A stretch of DNA of 7,054 nucleotides from a virus (taxonomy: Duplodnaviria; Heunggongvirae; Uroviricota; Caudoviricetes), in the IMG/VR virus record IMGVR_UViG_2547132270_000003, positions 1 to 7,054 of that record, one strand, 5' to 3'. Below the pieces are notes generated by a model. The model saw only the letters and a list, made by a program, of their open reading frames with translations. It searched no databases and had not been told where the DNA came from. Within the stretch, counting starts at the first letter, position 1; the number at the start of each line of letters is the position of its first letter. A program made the position numbers and the translations under genes. Shown piece by piece: positions 1 through 7,054 of this stretch.

Positions 1-600
1 AAATGGGCTATCTGAAAATTGAGGCGTGTCTTTTAGCAGGCGTTCCAGAATCGCAGATTCATCATCTGCCGTAAGTTCGCCAAGCTTCGCCAGCCACACA
101 TCGTCGGGCCGATCACCGACAAACGCCTGAAAGAGCCGCAGTGAGATCCATTCATGTCGGTATGGTTGATAACTGCGGGCATTCTTTTGGGTCAGGCTTT
201 GCTGAAAGCTGCGTCCGGATTTTCCAAAATCATGAAATAACCCGGCGATGGCTGCCAGCAGCGCAATGCTTTCCGCACATTGCCAGCGGTTTTCTTCCTT
301 GTTCACCAGGCTGGTTTGCGTTGTGCGATTTGTGGGAACGCGCCCCTGAGCATTAAAACGACGAATATTACCCACAATCCACATCAACTCCATTTGTCCA
401 TTCTTCTTTAGCCAGTGACATGCCACTGCGGTATTTCGCCTGGCAGTTTTGCGCAGTAAACGGCGGAGTGTATTAACTCCTTCCAGAGTAATCACCGTTT
501 GCCATGCGGCATCACCTGTACGTTCAGCAAACTGATCAATAATACGGCAGCTTTCCACACGAGCATTTTTCGTACAGCGCGAGATAATTAGGACATTCAT
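1..600 (-). CDS. cas3: Type I-F Cas2-Cas3 fusion nuclease/helicase, N-terminal part only (gene continues beyond the window start)
   Basis: Not in the ORF track because it has no stop in the window. Hand translation of the minus strand from ATG at 600..598 is open to position 1: MNVLIISRCTKNARVESCRIIDQFAERTGDAAWQTVITLEGVNTLRRLLRKTARRNTAVACHWLKKNGQMELMWIVGNIRRFNAQGRVPTNRTTQTSLVNKEENRWQCAESIALLAAIAGLFHDFGKSGRSFQQSL... This is a Cas2-like N-terminus followed by the start of an HD domain (LFHDFGK motif), as in Cas2-3 of I-F systems. The start ATG overlaps the cas1 stop (ATGA, 597..600). Confidence 0.88.
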   Translation of the reverse strand, partial: MNVLIISRCTKNARVESCRIIDQFAERTGDAAWQTVITLEGVNTLRRLLRKTARRNTAVACHWLKKNGQMELMWIVGNIRRFNAQGRVPTNRTTQTSLVNKEENRWQCAESIALLAAIAGLFHDFGKSGRSFQQSLTQKNARSYQPYRHEWISLRLFQAFVGDRPDDVWLAKLGELTADDESAILERLLKDTPQFSDSPF

Positions 601-1580
601 TGGTCAACCTTAGCCAGTACCTGGGCCGTTTCCTGCAGAGAGGTGATCATGACATCCAGCGCATCCGCTTGTTGAAAGATATTGATACAGCGTTGACGAA
701 ACTCCTGAGCATCTTCTCCCGCCATTGCGGCAATAAATGCTTGTGGCATAACCAGGGCATCTTTAATCAGATCGGCAAGGTCAAAAACAAGCCCGCCGCG
801 ACGTGTTTTACCGTGCATTACTGCTAAACCGTGCGGGATACCTGTTACCCACGCTGCGACTGCTGCCAGTCCATAAGCCAGATAATTCCCTTGATCGAGA
901 AAGCGGTTGGCCATATCAATACCACCGCCCCGTTTTGCGCGAGTGAAATCGCCATAACCCACGGTTTGGCTCACCATTTTGTAGAGTGCTTTGGTCAATT
1001 TGGCCTCTACGAGCATAAGCTGCGTATGGTTTTCTGCCGCGTCGATTTCTTCGCGAGTACGATTTAGCAGGGTCTTCAGCGCATTAGCATCAGGCTGAAA
1101 GGCGTGTTCACGCTGCATTTTCGCGCTGGTCCAATGCTTATCGATATGTGTCAGGCGGATTAACTGAAAACGTTTCGCGGCGGCAAGTCGTTTATCTTCA
1201 ACAAACCAAAAAGAAACCCACTGCTGAAGATATTCAGTAGGACGATATTCGCTTTGCGGACTGAGCCAGGAGACATCAACATCAACTTCATTTGCCGAAT
1301 ACAGCGGCGTACCATCCGTACCACAAAAGCCCACCATCACCCCGGCATGAGCAAATTCACGCATCGCCGCCTGAGTCACGGATGTTCCCATCCCCAACAT
1401 CAATGCTGTGGTATTCGCAATGGGGATATTCCAGTAGTACGACTCTTTACCTTCGCTGGTGACATACTCCACCCGCCCACCATTCACCTGTACCCGGCAT
1501 TTTTCCAGATAATAAATATTGGCGCGTTTGGAGTGGAGAATGGTTTTGAGATCGGAAGGCGTAAGGTAATTCGAAGACAT
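597..1580 (-). CDS. cas1: Type I-F Cas1 integrase (327 aa)
   Basis: ORF track 597..1586 (-). The protein (MSSNYLTPSDLKTILHSKRANIYYLEKCRVQVNGGRVEYV...GIPHGLAVMHGKTRRGGLVFDLADLIKD...) matches the Cas1 family of I-F systems from memory. The track start at 1586 is a GTG; I prefer ATG at 1580..1578, which has an AGGA Shine-Dalgarno about 8 nt upstream. Confidence 0.93.
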   Translation of the reverse strand: MSSNYLTPSDLKTILHSKRANIYYLEKCRVQVNGGRVEYVTSEGKESYYWNIPIANTTALMLGMGTSVTQAAMREFAHAGVMVGFCGTDGTPLYSANEVDVDVSWLSPQSEYRPTEYLQQWVSFWFVEDKRLAAAKRFQLIRLTHIDKHWTSAKMQREHAFQPDANALKTLLNRTREEIDAAENHTQLMLVEAKLTKALYKMVSQTVGYGDFTRAKRGGGIDMANRFLDQGNYLAYGLAAVAAWVTGIPHGLAVMHGKTRRGGLVFDLADLIKDALVMPQAFIAAMAGEDAQEFRQRCINIFQQADALDVMITSLQETAQVLAKVDQ

Positions 1581-1752
1581 AAACACATCCTGTGATTATT
1601 TTATATTTGAAGGTATTGGGCTTAGTACAGCATTGATTTATGTGCTGAAAATTGATTTCCGTCGCAATTATTACGATTGTTATTGTGTACTGAAGCTAAT
1701 GGTTCGGAGTTGAGAACGCCATAACGCAGCTAAATTTCTGCCATCATCGTAT

Positions 1753-1840
1753 TTGTGAAACTGCCTGTACGGCAGTGAACAACATCTGGCCGTAGCGCTG
1801 TTTAAACCAGTCTTTCTAAGCTGCCTGTACGGCAGTGAAC
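1753..1840 (-). CRISPR. Minimal type I-F CRISPR array: 2 repeats of 28 bp flanking one 32 bp spacer
   Basis: Plus strand has TTTCTAAGCTGCCTGTACGGCAGTGAAC at 1813..1840, the reverse complement of the I-F repeat GTTCACTGCCGTACAGGCAGCTTAGAAA. A degenerate copy TTGTGAAACTGCCTGTACGGCAGTGAAC lies at 1753..1780 (4 mismatches, all in the 8 nt that form the 3' end in transcript orientation). The spacer is 1781..1812 (aacatctggccgtagcgctgtttaaaccagtc on plus). The array is read on the minus strand, co-directional with cas1. Confidence 0.85.
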
Positions 1841-1992
1841 TCAAATACTACACGCTTAGTCCGTTGTTAATAAAGCGAAACCATCAATACTCCCCGCTCA
1901 GACCCTTTTTTATCCCTACATCCCTGCGCATAGTTTTATCAATAAATTACGTCACCCCCGCAAAAAAAGGTCACATCTGCTCCGTCGAAGCG
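1841..1992 (-). promoter_or_regulatory. Putative CRISPR leader (AT-rich, upstream of the intact repeat in transcript orientation)
   Basis: The intact repeat is at the high-coordinate end and the degenerate repeat at the low-coordinate end. For minus-strand transcription this places the leader at 1841 onward, between the clpA terminator and the array. No promoter elements were mapped. Confidence 0.45.
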
Positions 1993-1993
1993 C

Positions 1994-2029
1994 AAAAAAA
2001 GTCCGTAACCCCATACAGGATTACGGACT
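1994..2029 (-). terminator. Rho-independent terminator downstream of clpA
   Basis: On the minus strand: stem AGTCCGTAA (revcomp of 2021..2029), a 12-nt loop, stem TTACGGACT (revcomp of 2000..2008), followed by a run of six or more T (A-tract 1994..1999 on plus). It lies about 150 nt downstream of the clpA stop. Confidence 0.75.
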
Positions 2030-2128
2030 CAGATTGTTAACAACGTGCGATTTGTTTATGTCGAATGCGGCACATTCACCTTACCCAATCTACAAAATCA
2101 TGCAAATTCAATAGATTGCACGAACCTT

Positions 2129-2157
2129 GTAGGCCTGATAAGCGCAGCGCATCAGGC
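2129..2157. repeat. REP-like (repetitive extragenic palindrome) element
   Basis: GTAGGCCTGATAAGCGCAGCGCATCAGGC has the GCCTGAT...ATCAGGC inverted arms and the typical enterobacterial REP consensus. It sits immediately 3' of the clpA stop and is followed by T8 on the plus strand. Confidence 0.6.
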
Positions 2158-2176
2158 ATTTTTTTTCGCCATCAGA

Positions 2177-4453
2177 TTAATGCGCGGCTTCCGGTTTATG
2201 CTTTTGCGCACTCTGGAAGCCGTAGGTCAGCTCATTTTTCTCTTTATCCAGCGCAACAGTCACCTGGCCGCCATCCACCAGCGAGCCAAACAGCAGTTCG
2301 TTGGCGAGCGGTTTTTTCAGGTTATCCTGAATCACACGTGCCATCGGACGCGCTCCCATTGCCCGGTCGTAACCTTTTTCGGCCAGCCAGTTACGAGCTT
2401 CCTGACTCACTTCCAGAGAAACGCCTTTTTGATCCAACTGTACCTGCAACTCGACGATGAATTTATCCACCACCTGATGGATCACATCAGTAGAAAGATG
2501 ATCGAACCAGATAATGTTGTCGAGGCGGTTACGGAACTCCGGCGTAAAGATCTTCTTGATCTCCTCCATCGCATCGGTGCTGTTATCCTGCTGGATAAGG
2601 CCAATCGATTTACGCTCGGTTTCTCGTACCCCAGCGTTGGTGGTCATCACCAATACCACGTTACGGAAGTCTGCTTTGCGTCCGTTGTTATCGGTCAGCG
2701 TACCGTTATCCATCACCTGCAACAGAATGTTGAACACGTCTGGATGCGCTTTCTCGATTTCGTCCAGCAGCAGCACCGCGTGCGGATGCTTAATTACCGC
2801 ATCGGTCAGCAAACCGCCCTGATCAAAACCAACGTATCCCGGAGGCGCGCCAATCAGACGGCTGACAGTGTGACGTTCCATATATTCGGACATATCAAAG
2901 CGTAATAGCTCAATGCCCAGAGCTTTGGAAAGCTGCACTGTAACCTCAGTTTTACCGACCCCGGTTGGACCAGCAAACAGGAACGAACCGACCGGTTTAT
3001 GTTCATGGCCTAAACCCGCACGCGACATCTTGATAGCTTCGGTAAGCGCCTCAATAGCTTTATCCTGACCGAAAACCAGCATTTTCAGACGGTCGCCGAG
3101 GTTTCTTAGCGTATCGCGGTCACTCTGAGAAACACTCTTCTCAGGGATACGCGCGATACGAGCTACCACGGACTCAATATCCGCTACATTGACGGTTTTC
3201 TTACGCTTGCTGATCGGCATCAGTCGCGCACGCGCGCCGGCCTCGTCAATGACATCAATCGCCTTATCCGGCAGATGGCGATCGTTAATGTACTTCACCG
3301 CCAGTTCTACCGCCGCACGCACCGCTTTCGCGGTATAACGCACGTCGTGGTGCGCTTCGTACTTCGGTTTCAGGCCATTGATAATTTGAACGGTTTCTTC
3401 GATCGACGGCTCAGTAATATCGATTTTCTGGAAGCGGCGCGCCAGAGCACGATCTTTCTCGAAAATGTTGCTGAATTCCTGATATGTCGTTGAACCGATA
3501 ACGCGAATTTTACCGCTTGAGAGCAACGGTTTGATCAGGTTAGCCGCATCCACCTGACCGCCAGATGCTGCCCCTGCACCGATGATGGTGTGGATCTCAT
3601 CGATAAAAAGAATGCTGTTGGTATCCTGTTCCAGTTGTTTGAGCAACGCCTTAAAACGTTTTTCAAAGTCACCACGATATTTGGTGCCTGCTAACAAAGA
3701 ACCGATATCCAGAGAGTAAATCGTACAGTCAGCCATCACTTCCGGCACATCGCCCTGGACGATGCGCCAGGCGAGACCTTCCGCAATCGCAGTTTTACCG
3801 ACGCCAGACTCACCAACCAGCAGCGGGTTGTTTTTACGGCGACGGCAAAGAACCTGAATGGCGCGTTCCAGTTCCTTCTCACGACCAATCAGTGGGTCAA
3901 TGCCGCCCACTCGTGCAAGCTGATTCAGGTTAGTCGTGAAATTCTCCATACGCTCCTCCCCACCAGCTTGTTCTTCACTGCCCGGCTGGTTTCCTGGTTC
4001 AGAAGACTGAGATGGCTCGTCTTTACGCGTGCCATGAGAAATAAAGTTCACTACATCAAGGCGGCTGACTTCATGTTTGCGCAACAGATAAGCCGCCTGT
4101 GATTCCTGTTCGCTGAAGATAGCGACCAGAACGTTCGCACCGGTAACCTCATTGCGACCGGAGGACTGAACATGGAATACCGCACGTTGTAGTACACGCT
4201 GAAAACTCAATGTCGGCTGCGTGTCGCGCTCTTCTTCGCTGGCAGGCAGAACGGGCGTGGTTTGTTCAATAAAGGCTTCCAGTTCCTGACGGAGCGCAAC
4301 CAGATCTACGGAACACGCCTCCAGCGCCTCCCGGGCAGATGGGTTACTGAGCAACGCCAGTAACAAGTGCTCGACGGTCATAAACTCATGACGGTGCTCG
4401 CGCGCTCTGGCGAAAGCCATGTTTAAACTGAGTTCCAGTTCTTGATTGAGCAT
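2177..4453 (-). CDS. clpA: ATP-dependent Clp protease ATP-binding subunit ClpA (758 aa)
   Basis: ORF track 2177..4468 (-). The protein is essentially the E. coli ClpA sequence as I recall it ([35 protein letters not shown]..., two AAA+ modules with GESGVGKT and GPTGVGKT Walker A motifs). The true start is the second ATG at 4453 (MLNQ...), preceded by GGAGG; the track's upstream ATG at 4468 lies inside that ribosome-binding site. Confidence 0.97.
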
Positions 4454-4483
4454 AGGCACCTCCCCCAATTTTTATGCCTGCAT

Positions 4484-4804
4484 TCAGGCTTTTTCCAGCG
4501 TACACAGCAATGGATGCTCATTCTCCCTCGCATACTTGTTCACCATCGCTACTTTGGTTTCTGCAACCTCAGCGGTAAAGACGCCGCAAATGGCCTTCCC
4601 CTGGTAGTGAACAGCGAGCATCAATTGCGTTGCACGTTCTACATCATAAGAAAAGAATTTTTGTAACACGTCAATAACAAACTCCATCGGAGTGTAATCA
4701 TCATTGACTAATATCACTTTATACATAGATGGCGGTTTTAGCGCGTCGCGCACTCTTTCTTCCGCCAGTTGCTCAAAGTCCAGCCAGTCGTTCGTTTTAC
4801 CCAT
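4484..4804 (-). CDS. clpS: ClpS, ClpAP adaptor for N-degron substrates (106 aa)
   Basis: ORF track 4484..4804 (-): [51 protein letters not shown]..., which matches E. coli ClpS from memory. It lies 30 nt upstream of clpA, the canonical clpS-clpA arrangement. Confidence 0.95.
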
Positions 4805-4977
4805 TGTCAGTTATCATCTTCGGTTACGGTTATCGGCAGAACGCTCTGCCGCTGACAAGAGCTTATTTGCCTGACCAATCTACTTCACATGATAGATAAC
4901 TATCATTTATATCATTTAGTTAATTAGTCTTTATTTTTCATTATGTTGCAAATAACAAGCCCGTCAAAAACAGTGAT

Positions 4978-5034
4978 ATTAACTACACCATTAACTACAC
5001 CGCTTCACGAACAATATCGAACAACCGCGAACAA
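4978..5034. repeat. Perfect tandem 12-bp repeat (ATTAACTACACC x2) followed by three CGAACAA heptamers at exact 10-bp phasing
   Basis: Read directly: ATTAACTACACC at 4978..4989 and 4990..5001; CGAACAA at 5008..5014, 5018..5024 and 5028..5034. It lies about 175 to 230 bp upstream of the clpS start in an AT-rich region. Confidence 0.5.
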
Positions 5035-5299
5035 AGATCAACACGCTTTAATCATTATCATTTTCCGGCTATCCGTCATGAAGCTGGTGGATGATCTGCG
5101 TGGTGATTTCCACCATTCAGAGCAGGGCGGTCATCATGACCATGCCATAACAAAAACCCCATATTCGTGGTTTTTCTGTGTCGGGGCTATTCTGCTGTTG
5201 CCGTGCTGGTGGATATTCTCCGGTATGCGGCTCCCCATATCGGCATCAGGCCCACCAGCGTGAAGCGTTTTTCATTTTTCGCGGGTATAAAAAATCGAT

Positions 5300-5348
5300 G
5301 GGGCGGGCAGTCCTGAAGAGGTCAGGATACAGAGATTTGACCCGCCCC
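5300..5348 (-). other. GC-rich hairpin (GGGGCGGG ... CCCGCCCC) with an inner TCCTGA/TCAGGA hairpin; terminator-like for leftward transcripts
   Basis: Inverted repeat GGGGCGGG (5300..5307) and CCCGCCCC (5341..5348). On the minus strand a T6 tract follows, but after a 5-nt spacer, so it is not a textbook terminator. A 14-bp perfect palindrome GGCGGAATTCCGCC lies nearby at 5381..5394. Confidence 0.35.
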
Positions 5349-5524
5349 CTCCCTGTGCATGAGCACAATAAGTAACCAAAGGCGGAATTCCGCCCTCGGT
5401 GCTCACATATAAGAAACGATATTTCTTCCACCGATCCCCTGTATTTTGGTATCGCGGGTAAGCCCCAAAATCTGGGTGTTACTCTTACTACCCAAACTAC
5501 GGGTAGTTTCCGTAGTTTCTGGTC

Positions 5525-5544
5525 GAGTTGCAGATCTGCAACTC
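5525..5544. promoter_or_regulatory. 20-bp perfect palindrome GAGTTGCAGATCTGCAACTC (candidate protein-binding site)
   Basis: Read directly; the sequence is its own reverse complement over 20 bp, in a region with no convincing gene. Confidence 0.4.
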
Positions 5545-5800
5545 ACCCACCAGCTAACCCATTTTTGGGCCGTCGGGAATATCAACCAGTTACTGCCAGT
5601 GATCTGGATGTTCTGCAGTCTGGCTGGTGGCTGGACGCTGATTTTTTGCGTACCTGTATCGGTTTCGTATCCGGTGGATGTTCTGCGTACTTTTCAGAGG
5701 CGGATTTCCGCCCACGCCATTCTGGACCAGTTGAAGGGGCCGAATACATCACCGGATTTAGGGGATGTTCCCGGCCTCCTCAATTTGAGGATTGTGGAAG

Positions 5801-5869
5801 AATCAATGGGTTAGTCTTACTGTCCCTCATTTCCTGCATTGCAGGTTTTCGAAATAATCAATGGGTTAG
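5801..5869. repeat. Direct repeats AATCAATGGGTTAG (5801..5814 and 5856..5869), 55 bp apart
   Basis: Read directly. A third, inverted copy of the ATGGGTTAG core (plus-strand CTAACCCAT) lies near 5553..5561. The second direct copy overlaps the TGA (5858..5860) that ends the open frame downstream of the 94-aa ORF. Confidence 0.5.
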
Positions 5870-6031
5870 GCCATCGTGCAATTTTGCACTTTGCCAGCCA
5901 GCGCAATGTTGCGTTATCGGGAATATCAGCACGTTACCGGCTTTCGTCATGTTAAACACTGGCCAGGCATCGCCATTCTTATCAATAAAATCACCAGGCT
6001 CAAAATTGAGCTTTGCTTTAATCTCAGCAAG

Positions 6032-6316
6032 TTACCGCCGTAACCGTTCCGGCTTCTTCCACTGGTAAGTTTTTTTCTCGCTCTCCTGATACATCGCCAC
6101 ACGTCGACGGTATGCCAGCAACTCTAATACCCTGGTTCGTATGTCGCGCATATCCACGCCGTTAAGATCGATACCGTCACAGCGCATCACCTCAGCCACC
6201 ACACGCGCGTAATTTTCAGCGGTGACGGTATCAGGCTGCATGGCCTCCTGTGTGCCAGCCTGCTGGCTGATTCCGGTAACGCGGCGGATTAATCCCAGTA
6301 GTTCGGCTTCTGTCAT
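6032..6316 (-). CDS. Hypothetical small protein (94 aa) immediately downstream of the terS-like gene, possibly a truncated or interrupted gene
   Basis: ORF track 6032..6316 (-), starting at an ATG 11 nt after the terS-like stop with no clear Shine-Dalgarno, so translational coupling is plausible. It ends at TAA 6032..6034, and the same frame stays open for 57 more codons to TGA at 5858..5860. It does not resemble the lambda large terminase gpA N-terminus as I recall it. Confidence 0.5.
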   Translation of the reverse strand: MTEAELLGLIRRVTGISQQAGTQEAMQPDTVTAENYARVVAEVMRCDGIDLNGVDMRDIRTRVLELLAYRRRVAMYQESEKKTYQWKKPERLRR

Positions 6317-6327
6317 AGTGCGCTACG

Positions 6328-6870
6328 TTACTTGTCTTTATCCGGCTGAAACTTATCAGGCACATTTCCGGTAGTTTCCATCAGATAATCGGACAGTATT
6401 CGCGGGATGTTTTCATCAAGTTTTGTGCATGCGTTACAGGCTCTGACAACTTCCTTTTTAAGTCCATCCAGCATAGCGGGGGTAATCTGTGGGAAGCGCC
6501 TTTGCATGGTAAGCGGCAAACTGTCCATGATTGAAGAAATCTGACTCGCCAGTTTTGAAAGCACATATATACAAAATTCCGTACTAATAACGTCGCCGCG
6601 TTCGCGCTCGTTTTTAAGCTCCTGCGCCTCCGCCTGCGCTGTCAGCAATCTGATCCTGACTCGCAAAAGTTCATCATTATCAATCTCGCCTTTGTCGTCT
6701 GTAATCTGGTTAATTGCATTGCTAACCCGATTGTCTATTACGCTGGCAACATCATAAAACGCCTCGCGGCCTTTACGTTCAACGGGAGTCACTCCCCACT
6801 TGTCGAACGCTGTCGCACTTACACGGCAGCTTTGCGCCATGTTTTTTTTGTTCATCAGGTACGATTTCAT
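6328..6870 (-). CDS. terS: Phage lambda Nu1-like terminase small subunit (TerS)
   Basis: ORF track 6328..6882 (-). The C-terminal two thirds (LLTAQAEAQELKNERERGDVISTEFCIYVLSKLASQISSIMDSLPLTMQRRFP...LDENIPRILSDYLME) aligns with lambda Nu1 as I recall it (RLTRAQADAQELKNARDSAEVVETAFCTFVLSRIAGEIASILDGLPLSVQRRFP...LDELIPGLLSEYIE). The N-terminal region is divergent. The track start at 6882 is a GTG; I prefer ATG at 6870, which has GGGGA 5 nt upstream, and ATG at 6855 is an alternative. Confidence 0.85.
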   Translation of the reverse strand: MKSYLMNKKNMAQSCRVSATAFDKWGVTPVERKGREAFYDVASVIDNRVSNAINQITDDKGEIDNDELLRVRIRLLTAQAEAQELKNERERGDVISTEFCIYVLSKLASQISSIMDSLPLTMQRRFPQITPAMLDGLKKEVVRACNACTKLDENIPRILSDYLMETTGNVPDKFQPDKDK

Positions 6871-7054
6871 CAATATCCCCACTTAAGTAATGTTTCAGGT
6901 TGGTGTATTGGTTTTATCTTTCCCTTTTTATTCATAGAGATAGAGCGAACAACAAAACCACCACCAATCCCCTAAAAATACTCATAAATAGCGAAAACCC
7001 GCAAGGTCGCCGCCCCGTAGCCTACCGGATCGCCGGAAAGGACCCGCCAGCCAG
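6871..7054 (-). other. Lambda-type cos site: cosN cohesive-end sequence at 7004..7015 with a divergent cosB between cosN and terS
   Basis: Minus strand reads CTACG GGGCGGCGACCT TGCGGGTTTTCGCTATTTATGAGTATTTTTAGGGG. From memory the lambda left end is GGGCGGCGACCTCGCGGGTTTTCGCTATTTATGAAAATTTTCCGG, so the 12-nt cohesive end and the adjoining ~22 nt are nearly identical. Similarity is lost after about 35 nt, through the ~135 bp up to the terS start. Confidence 0.75.

Follow-up and report, generated by a model that had tools for sequence, protein, structure and literature searches.

An unpartnered Nu1-family small terminase beside clpS, encoded by a Gram-negative phage-inducible chromosomal island

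Results

A Nu1-family small terminase gene lacks a large terminase partner

The 7,054-nucleotide stretch of DNA analyzed here (IMG/VR record IMGVR_UViG_2547132270_000003, positions 1 to 7,054; hereafter the window) contains an intact open reading frame (ORF) on its minus strand (6328-6870), which encodes a protein of 180 amino acids from its ATG, or of 184 amino acids if a GTG at 6882 is used. The gene follows a lambda-like cos site, and its product is a small terminase (TerS) of the Nu1 family, composed of an N15-type winged-helix DNA-binding domain (DBD), a helical core and a lambda-like C-terminal region with a 14-residue tail. It lies in a phage satellite integrated next to clpS, and it probably serves this element, a Gram-negative phage-inducible chromosomal island (PICI) of the type represented by the prototype EcCICFT073, as its own packaging specificity factor.

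The assignment to the Nu1 family, already made in a first-pass annotation of the sequence, is borne out by a match to the Pfam family Phage_Nu1 (PF07471; score 84.3 bits, cut-off 30 bits, E 9.6e-24, residues 68-151 of the 184-residue form), a full-length match to PHROG 57, 'terminase small subunit' (E 1.3e-50), and 37% identity to lambda Nu1 over residues 6-166 (BLASTP, E 4e-36). The closest protein in 50,697 phage records is gp1 of phage N15 (47% identity, tblastn, E 3e-44), and none of these records matches TerS above 60%; the exact 180-residue protein is encoded in many public assemblies. Sequence searches of the PDB with TerS and with the product of the 94-codon ORF behind it yielded nothing meaningful, and NCBIfam contains no match for either of these proteins or for the AlpA-like gene of the island.

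Only half of the gene context of a lambda-like TerS is present, with cosN located 133 bp upstream and the large terminase (TerL) gene missing behind it. The absence of a downstream TerL gene, also pointed out at first pass, withstood a tblastn search with lambda gpA: neither the window, where the best match (E 0.08) falls inside cas1, nor any of ten island loci gave a significant match. A gpA remnant was also sought in the 1.1-kb tail of the island, and none was found. The orphan state with respect to TerL is a trait of the genomic context, not of the TerS protein. An A8 run in the N-terminal codons, once suggested as a possible slippage site, reads AAC AAA AAA AAC (Asn-Lys-Lys-Asn) and is part of a conserved Asn-Lys-Lys motif. 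In relatives, it is shortened to A7 or interrupted, and frameshifted copies were not seen; as the homopolymer is not maintained among relatives, we rejected the idea of slippage.

The assembly core is the best-conserved part of the protein

When compared with lambda Nu1 region by region (values from an independent realignment in parentheses), TerS is 36% (38%) identical in the DBD (residues 1-50), 0% (0%) in the linker (residues 51-71), where lambda carries about 20 extra residues that the window protein lacks, 56% (55%) in the central core (residues 72-130) and 39% (37%) in the TerL-docking region (residues 131-166). These regional identities single out the central assembly core, not the gpA-interaction end, as the part that is best conserved, which corrects the initial view that only the C-terminal, gpA-interacting region had been retained. 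The docking tail is in fact as divergent from lambda as the DBD (37-39% versus 36-38%). The core, predicted by AlphaFold2 (AF2) to form long helices, shares 54-56% identity with both the lambda and N15 proteins and includes an invariant AQAxAQELKN stretch. The C-terminal region is present and alignable, with 36-39% identity to that of lambda or N15, and the C-terminal half, used as a lone query, finds lambda-type Nu1 as its best match (44%). Lambda gpNu1 shares the overall arrangement of a winged helix-turn-helix, a helical core and a C-terminal region, which in lambda binds TerL, and is likewise encoded downstream of cosQ-cosN-cosB.

The N-terminal region had initially been described as divergent. 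This holds in relation to lambda, but the domain is no orphan, as it belongs to the short N15 type and is 58% identical to the DBD of N15 gp1. Used alone as a query, it retrieves N15 and Pseudomonas lambda-like phages, not lambda. The AF2 model of residues 5-56 shows a winged helix-turn-helix (beta-alpha-alpha-beta-beta-alpha; predicted local distance difference test score, pLDDT, 73-82), whose top Foldseek matches are the lambda-like TerS DBDs 7lwr_A and 7lw0_A (template modeling scores 0.74 and 0.71; root-mean-square deviations 1.8 and 1.6 Å over 51 columns), followed by MerR, BldC and excisionase winged helix-turn-helix folds. The small size of the domain accounts for the weak E-values of these matches (0.06-0.35).

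A lambda-identical cosN is followed by an unrelated cosB

The cos site upstream of terS is read on the same strand. It starts with a cosQ-like element (GGGTCCTTTCC, 7035..7045, minus strand), which aligns with lambda cosQ and is kept in all islands compared, followed by cosN (GGGCGGCGACCT, 7004..7015, minus strand), which equals the 12-base cohesive end of lambda and has no second match in the window. The right flank of cosN (TGCGGGTTTTCGCTATTTATGAG, 6981..7003, minus strand), spanning +13 to about +35, is near-identical to lambda. The cosN 12-mer by itself is not rare by chance, and what argues for a cos site is its setting, with cosQ, conserved flanking sequence and a location upstream of TerS. 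Likeness to lambda stops from about +35, and the cosB beyond is unrelated to that of lambda, in agreement with the earlier description of a divergent cosB next to the gene; the window lacks both the R1/R2/I1-type sites and the downstream A gene of lambda. Among satellites with this type of DBD, cosQ, cosN and the stretch from +23 to +36 are conserved, and the distance between cosN and the ATG of terS varies only between 133 and 138 bp, with 133 bp in the window.

Within cosB, an alignment that took in E. coli, Enterobacter-type and metagenomic or viral-contig islands revealed only one block that is invariant bar one position, TGGTGGTGGT(T/G)TTGTT, at +50 to +68 from cosN. In the window, this block reads TGGTGGTGGTTTTGTTGTT (6948..6966, minus strand) and represents a putative TerS-binding site. 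It contains GGTGGTGGT at +51 to +59 and GTTGTT at +63 to +68, and its TGGTGGTGGTnTTGTT motif sits at the R3 position of lambda and N15. For N15, R3 is GAGGTTGTTGTT (bp 48-59), with a GTTGTT hexamer that is critical (PMC4669245). A second block (CAATACACCAACCTG, 6896..6910, minus strand) is partly conserved and present in most of the aligned islands.

The system resembles N15 in its short DBD without the lambda insertion, its short cosB and a G/T triplet repeat with GTTGTT at the R3 position. It differs from N15 in that the window block reads GGTGGTGGT and then TTTGTTGTT, with GTTGTT displaced by 9 bp, and in three residues of the recognition helix. Moreover, N15 gp1 is followed by TerL, whereas the window TerS is not, and the N15 cosN deviates from that of lambda at two of 12 positions, whereas the island cosN is lambda-exact. 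A second cosN, as found in EcCICFT073, is absent from the window at up to two mismatches, and no integration host factor consensus site was found in cosB. When terS itself was searched for a remote inverted R site like that of N15, only a 9-mer with one mismatch emerged, which coincides with the A8 run and is not distinguishable from chance.

A separate observation concerns the R3 core of PICIs that use Rpp proteins for packaging, ACCACCACC at +55 to +63 (PMC9026076), which is the reverse complement of the GGTGGTGGT motif of TerS-type islands. The two lie at near-equal distances from cosN, the former at about 15611-15619 of locus L022 in the EcCICFT073 cosB and the latter at 6957-6965 of the window. 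This relationship may reflect coincidence or an inverted site.

The gene is part of a 10.6-kb att-bounded satellite

From position 4907 to its end, the window consists of foreign DNA within an Escherichia chromosomal segment. The content of the whole island was read from eight loci, the island end of which matches that of the window at 99.9-100% identity; the genes for the integrase, AlpA and the primase/replication module lie outside the window. In all eight loci fetched, the complete element comprises 10,565 bp between cspD/yljB and clpS. It encodes, in this order, an integrase, AlpA, a variable early region, a DUF4222 protein, a D5-type primase and a single-stranded DNA-binding protein (SSB), followed by a capsid module with a Phage_cap_E capsid homolog and an HDPD decoration homolog, a second AlpA-like gene, cos, TerS and the 94-residue protein.

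At the junction between the island and the region upstream of clpS lies the 18-bp attR core ATGATAGTTATCTATCAT (4889..4906, minus strand), whose attL copy (locus L004, 1400-1417) differs from it by one base. The empty clpS-cspD site of strain K-12 overlaps both junctions by 22 bp. Close to attR, we found a tandem repeat of GGTGTAGTTAAT (two copies, 4978..5002, minus strand), and the same repeat is located beside int at the opposite island end (L004, 1536-1560) and in EcCICFT073. The repeats near both island ends are probably integrase arm-type binding sites. The element thus displays the layout of Gram-negative PICIs of the EcCICFT073 type, with int at one end, alpA, a primase/replication module, mostly unidirectional genes and a length in the range of about 10-15 kb, together with the att traits of such islands, namely an 18-bp core at both ends, an empty site in K-12 and arm-type repeats on both arms.

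The first-pass annotation had considered either a satellite or a prophage with deleted morphogenetic genes and had called for inspection of the rest of the element. The genes recovered, including int, alpA, primase, ssb, capsid, decoration, cos and TerS within precise att borders, are those of a satellite, whereas portal, protease, tail and lysis genes and TerL are absent from the called genes of the island loci, as judged by Pfam content and gpA searches. Also missing is the gene set of capsid-forming PICIs (cf-PICIs), with their own TerL, portal, protease and head-tail connectors; of structural genes, only the capsid and decoration homologs are present. The capsid (E-like) gene precedes the decoration (D-like) gene in the island (L004, 8013-9404), whereas D precedes E in the lambdoid prophage of CFT073 (L014, 40691-42124), and each of the two island proteins shares only about 40% identity with the corresponding phage protein.

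These data make it highly improbable that the window shows the left end of a decayed lambdoid prophage that has lost TerL together with its head and tail genes. The arrangement of cos and the Nu1-like gene does resemble the left end of lambda, and the non-coding tail behind the genes would be in keeping with decay. However, the element is conserved, spans 10.6 kb between precise 18-bp att repeats and has a gene set that recurs at other att sites and in other genera. It includes PICI-type alpA and D5-primase genes and shows no remnants of gpA or of lysis and tail genes. In addition, the divergence and reversed order of the capsid and decoration genes relative to the CFT073 prophage and the existence of near-identical copies in hosts that are 8% apart speak against a prophage remnant.

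The sequence of the element also bears on its mobility. The island end (2,143 bp, 4912-7054) is 99.9-100% identical to E. coli islands, whereas the adjacent clpS-clpA region (2177-4804) shares only about 92% identity with the same loci. Compared with K-12, clpS-clpA is 91.8% identical in the window and 98.2-99.2% identical in E. coli strains. Because the island is nearly invariant on a backbone that differs by about 8%, we conclude that it recently entered a divergent Escherichia lineage, using the same att site. Near-identical island ends in hosts this far apart suggest that the system is currently mobile.

The terminase clade is confined to satellites

Relatives of TerS with at least 54% identity stem from E. 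coli, Kosakonia and Superficieibacter genomes and from metagenomic contigs, on which the TerS is one named in Enterobacter and other Enterobacteriaceae. All of them lie in elements with satellite capsid, decoration and AlpA-like genes and without gpA. By contrast, relatives with at most 42% identity (from Hafnia, Klebsiella, Pseudomonas and a metagenome-assembled genome, MAG) have a gpA-like TerL gene overlapping their 3' end wherever the locus extends far enough; gpA was not detectable in two MAG loci of this group, L029 (only a 4.1-kb contig) and L033. This TerS clade is satellite-specific.

One relative, P0103, is a chimeric satellite TerS from an island adjoining phoQ (L016, 9001-9585; L017, 4798-5382). 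Its N-terminal half is identical at 98 of 101 positions to the phage-21-type TerS of a CFT073 prophage, and its C-terminal half at 86 of 93 positions to the window TerS, including the ETTGNVPDKFQPDKDK tail, with an apparent recombination joint in the conserved AQADAQELKN stretch. The P0103 island has a long, 21-like cosB that matches its DBD. The DBD and cosB co-vary and travel together. The cosN of this phoQ-adjacent island (GGGCGTCGACCT, about position 8830 of L016) deviates from that of lambda by one mismatch.

This co-variation is relevant to the notion that TerS acts mainly as an interference or decoy protein, titrating or misdirecting the TerL of the helper to block the phage, with the packaging of the island being independent of TerS. 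Packaging and interference are often combined in satellites, as exemplified by Rpp and Ppi (PMC6739421), and cross-reaction with helper DNA is possible, given that lambda cos can be acted on by the terminase specific for N15 (PMC4669245). However, the DBD and the block at the R position are conserved together across genera, and the exchange of the DBD in P0103 comes with a matching cosB, which argues for recognition in cis of the island's own cos. We regard a mainly interfering or decoy function as unlikely.

Other relatives (TerS 55-57% identical) reside inside the major capsid gene of lambdoid prophages (L018-L021, L042 and L068), whose decoration protein is 96% identical to that of N15. In two of these helper-embedded cases, L042 and L068, the TerS proteins of helper and satellite could be compared on one contig. 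The TerS proteins of both helpers are lambda-type (84% identical to Nu1 in the DBD and 91% in the C-terminus), with a gpA that is 88-89% identical to that of lambda. The satellite proteins have N15-type DBDs, which are only 31-34% identical to that of the respective helper. One of the helper-embedded satellites carries an accessory gene for a TIR-domain protein (CAP12-PCTIR_TIR).

The island represents a known kind of element

A PICI described in E. coli strain IHE3034 (TerS ECOK1_RS04630) occupies the same site (cspD/yljB, island, clpS-clpA-CRISPR-cas1f) and has the same gene order as the window-type island. Compared with the window, identity is 84% for its TerS and 78% for the ORF behind it; it constitutes a different allele of the island, with capsid, decoration and primase modules that are only 48-55% identical. 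Previous work reported that the IHE3034 island 'encodes TerS' and marked it as RS04635-RS04640::cat; its packaging mechanism was not studied (Fillol-Salom 2018; PMC6092414). SatelliteFinder, moreover, lists the small terminase as a core component of PICIs (PMC10085698). Because of these two precedents, the element belongs to an already described family, with a TerS-encoding PICI at the same locus already published. A cos satellite with its own TerS and without TerL was not found as a characterized mechanism in the literature searched. The packaging strategies reviewed in a 2022 Penades preprint comprise copies of the helper cos, the pac-type TerS-S of Staphylococcus aureus pathogenicity islands (SaPIs), Rpp and cf-PICIs (10.1101/2022.09.08.507074).

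The SaPI TerS-S proteins provide a functional parallel, in which a TerS supplied by the satellite acts with the helper TerL on satellite DNA only (as reviewed in PMC6739421). They belong to an unrelated TerS family and support headful (pac) packaging rather than cos packaging. SaPIs additionally encode Ppi, which acts against the phage TerS; such a gene was not identified in the window island. Relatives of the window TerS also occur in the helper-embedded configuration described for other PICIs (PMC10111431), whereas the window island is chromosomal and located beside clpS; the published helper-embedded example 11capE is said to lack terS (PMC10111431).

The closest comparison is with EcCICFT073, which lies beside phoQ in CFT073 and shares the int, alpA, primase, ssb, capsid and decoration layout, as well as lambda-like cosQ and cosN elements with its own cosB and a specificity gene directly after cos. 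In place of TerS, it encodes RppA (144 residues), and its next ORF, of 93 codons, gives a protein 74% identical to that of the 94-codon ORF. Rpp acts by binding the helper TerS (PMC6092414, PMC6739421), which raises the question of whether the window TerS may work in a similar manner, forming mixed oligomers with the helper TerS through its core, retargeting the holoenzyme to the island cos and thereby poisoning phage packaging. Its gene lies exactly at the position of rppA, conservation within the protein peaks in the central core (54-59% identity to lambda-type TerS proteins, and 83% in L068), and islands of the Rpp type require the helper TerS (PMC6739421, PMC6092414). Nevertheless, we consider such redirection unlikely. 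By sequence, TerS resembles neither RppA, with which BLASTP gives no alignment and hhalign a probability of 1.5%, nor, in the PDB search, RppC (6hlk), although lambda Nu1 finds 6hlk at E 0.035. In addition, Rpp proteins (144-153 residues) are thought to lack the TerL-binding end (PMC9026076), whereas the 180-residue window TerS retains the whole Nu1 C-terminal region plus its tail, and Rpp contacts TerS through a different surface (PMC6739421).

Other features of the window

Directly behind terS lies a conserved satellite ORF of 94 codons (6032..6316, minus strand), whose sole PHROG match, family 1561, has no assigned function there. It has no match in Pfam. Its product has 955 homologs, which among the matches listed are named hypothetical or prophage proteins and, where an organism is named, come from Escherichia or Shigella; it is essentially absent from sequenced phages. 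An AF2 model predicts three helices (pLDDT 73), for which Foldseek found no fold match below E 1.

The ORF is followed by an island tail of about 1.1 kb (4907..6031, minus strand), in which the first reading had rightly seen no convincing gene: its ORFs lack any family match, and island variants differ in it by indels. A search of the whole window against Rfam gave nothing above noise in the island part. A 125-bp non-coding block within the tail (5428-5552) is 90% identical to a block in an island at a different att site (L016) and holds the perfect palindrome GAGTTGCAGATCTGCAACTC and the palindrome AAACTACGGGTAGTTT. It is followed, on the island strand, by a terminator-like hairpin (5375-5400).

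Beyond attR, the chromosomal segment continues with clpS (4484-4804, minus strand) and clpA (2177-4468, minus strand). Just downstream of clpA, Rfam identifies a match to the small RNA ES036 (CssrF; 2094-2136, plus strand; 42.7 bits against a gathering threshold of 37.6). A type I-F CRISPR-Cas locus reaches into the window at positions 1-1840. Its edge comprises the beginning of cas3f, then cas1f (597-1586, minus strand) and, at about 1752-1840, a minimal array of two repeats and a single 32-nt spacer (1781-1812). The spacer matches a gene of an integrating conjugative element (PFL_4705/TIGR03752 family) in Salmonella at 29 of 32 positions. Packaging from the island cos would head toward clpS-clpA-cas, and we considered lateral transduction of the CRISPR-Cas neighborhood. 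We dropped this idea, since lateral transduction is reportedly not carried out by cos systems (PMC12829572).

Discussion

The gene at 6328-6870 provides an integrated satellite, a Gram-negative PICI of the EcCICFT073 type, with a small terminase that, in the reading we regard as probable, binds the island's own cosB and recruits the TerL of a lambda-type helper. A lambda-like helper phage would induce the island, leading to its excision and replication. The satellite TerS would then bind the island cosB through its N15-type winged-helix domain, with the invariant TGGTGGTGGTnTTGTT block at the R3 position as the likely site, oligomerize by means of its conserved helical core and dock the gpA-like TerL of the helper through its C-terminal region. 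The helper TerL would nick the lambda-identical cosN, and concatemers of the island would be packaged into particles built by the helper, with packaging ending at cosQ/cosN. Because the DBD and cosB differ in specificity from those of the helper, the helper TerS should not recognize the island efficiently, which would explain why the island supplies its own. Feiss et al. (2015; PMC4669245) provide an experimental precedent for such a division of labor: N15 cos DNA is not packaged by lambda terminase, yet lambda TerL functions with a TerS of N15 specificity. An N15-type DBD acting with lambda TerL is the combination proposed here for the island.

Several observations weigh against this model. 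The GTTGTT hexamer of the island lies 9 bp farther from cosN than that of N15, and lambda tolerates little change in this spacing (PMC4669245). The IHE3034 island showed almost no transfer after mitomycin C treatment with the resident prophages, yielding from <1 to 40 transductants/ml (PMC6092414). The AF2 model of the whole TerS protein is of moderate quality (pLDDT 67, predicted template modeling score 0.29), and the region presumed to dock TerL is only 37-39% identical to that of lambda. Furthermore, in the two helper-embedded cases, the C-terminus of the satellite protein is 37% (L042) and 63% (L068) identical to that of the helper TerS, although the TerL proteins of the two helpers are near-identical, so that a simple rule by which the satellite C-terminus matches its helper fails. 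Satellite C-termini are indeed diverse, with 32-37% identity between lineages. This diversity may mean either that docking relies on a few conserved residues, or that other helpers are used, or that the core mediates the formation of mixed oligomers with the helper TerS.

A broader, more tentative proposal, which we put at somewhat below an even chance, is that TerS-type Gram-negative PICIs fully replace the helper TerS with a mosaic of two modules, one comprising the N15-like DBD and its single R site in cosB and the other comprising the core and the TerL-docking C-terminus, and that these cassettes recombine with helper phages at the AQADAQELKN joint. P0103 combines a phage-21 DBD and cosB with a satellite C-terminus, and the protein in L068 joins a satellite DBD to a helper-like core and C-terminus. 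If this proposal is true, the strategy would keep the island invisible to the helper TerS while tuning which TerL is captured.

The window island exemplifies a form of satellite piracy which, in the literature searched, has been mentioned yet never dissected. The solutions studied in enterobacterial cos satellites are to copy the helper cos, as in P4 and the cos-type SaPIs, or to reprogram the helper TerS by means of Rpp. The window island, by contrast, encodes a complete TerS with another DNA-binding specificity and carries a cosB of its own. Knowing the identity of the helper would explain the spread of the island and would allow the limits of divergence at which a TerS C-terminus still captures lambda-type TerL to be tested in a natural setting. 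For genome annotation, the lesson is that a partnerless 'terminase small subunit' beside clpS marks a satellite, not a broken prophage.

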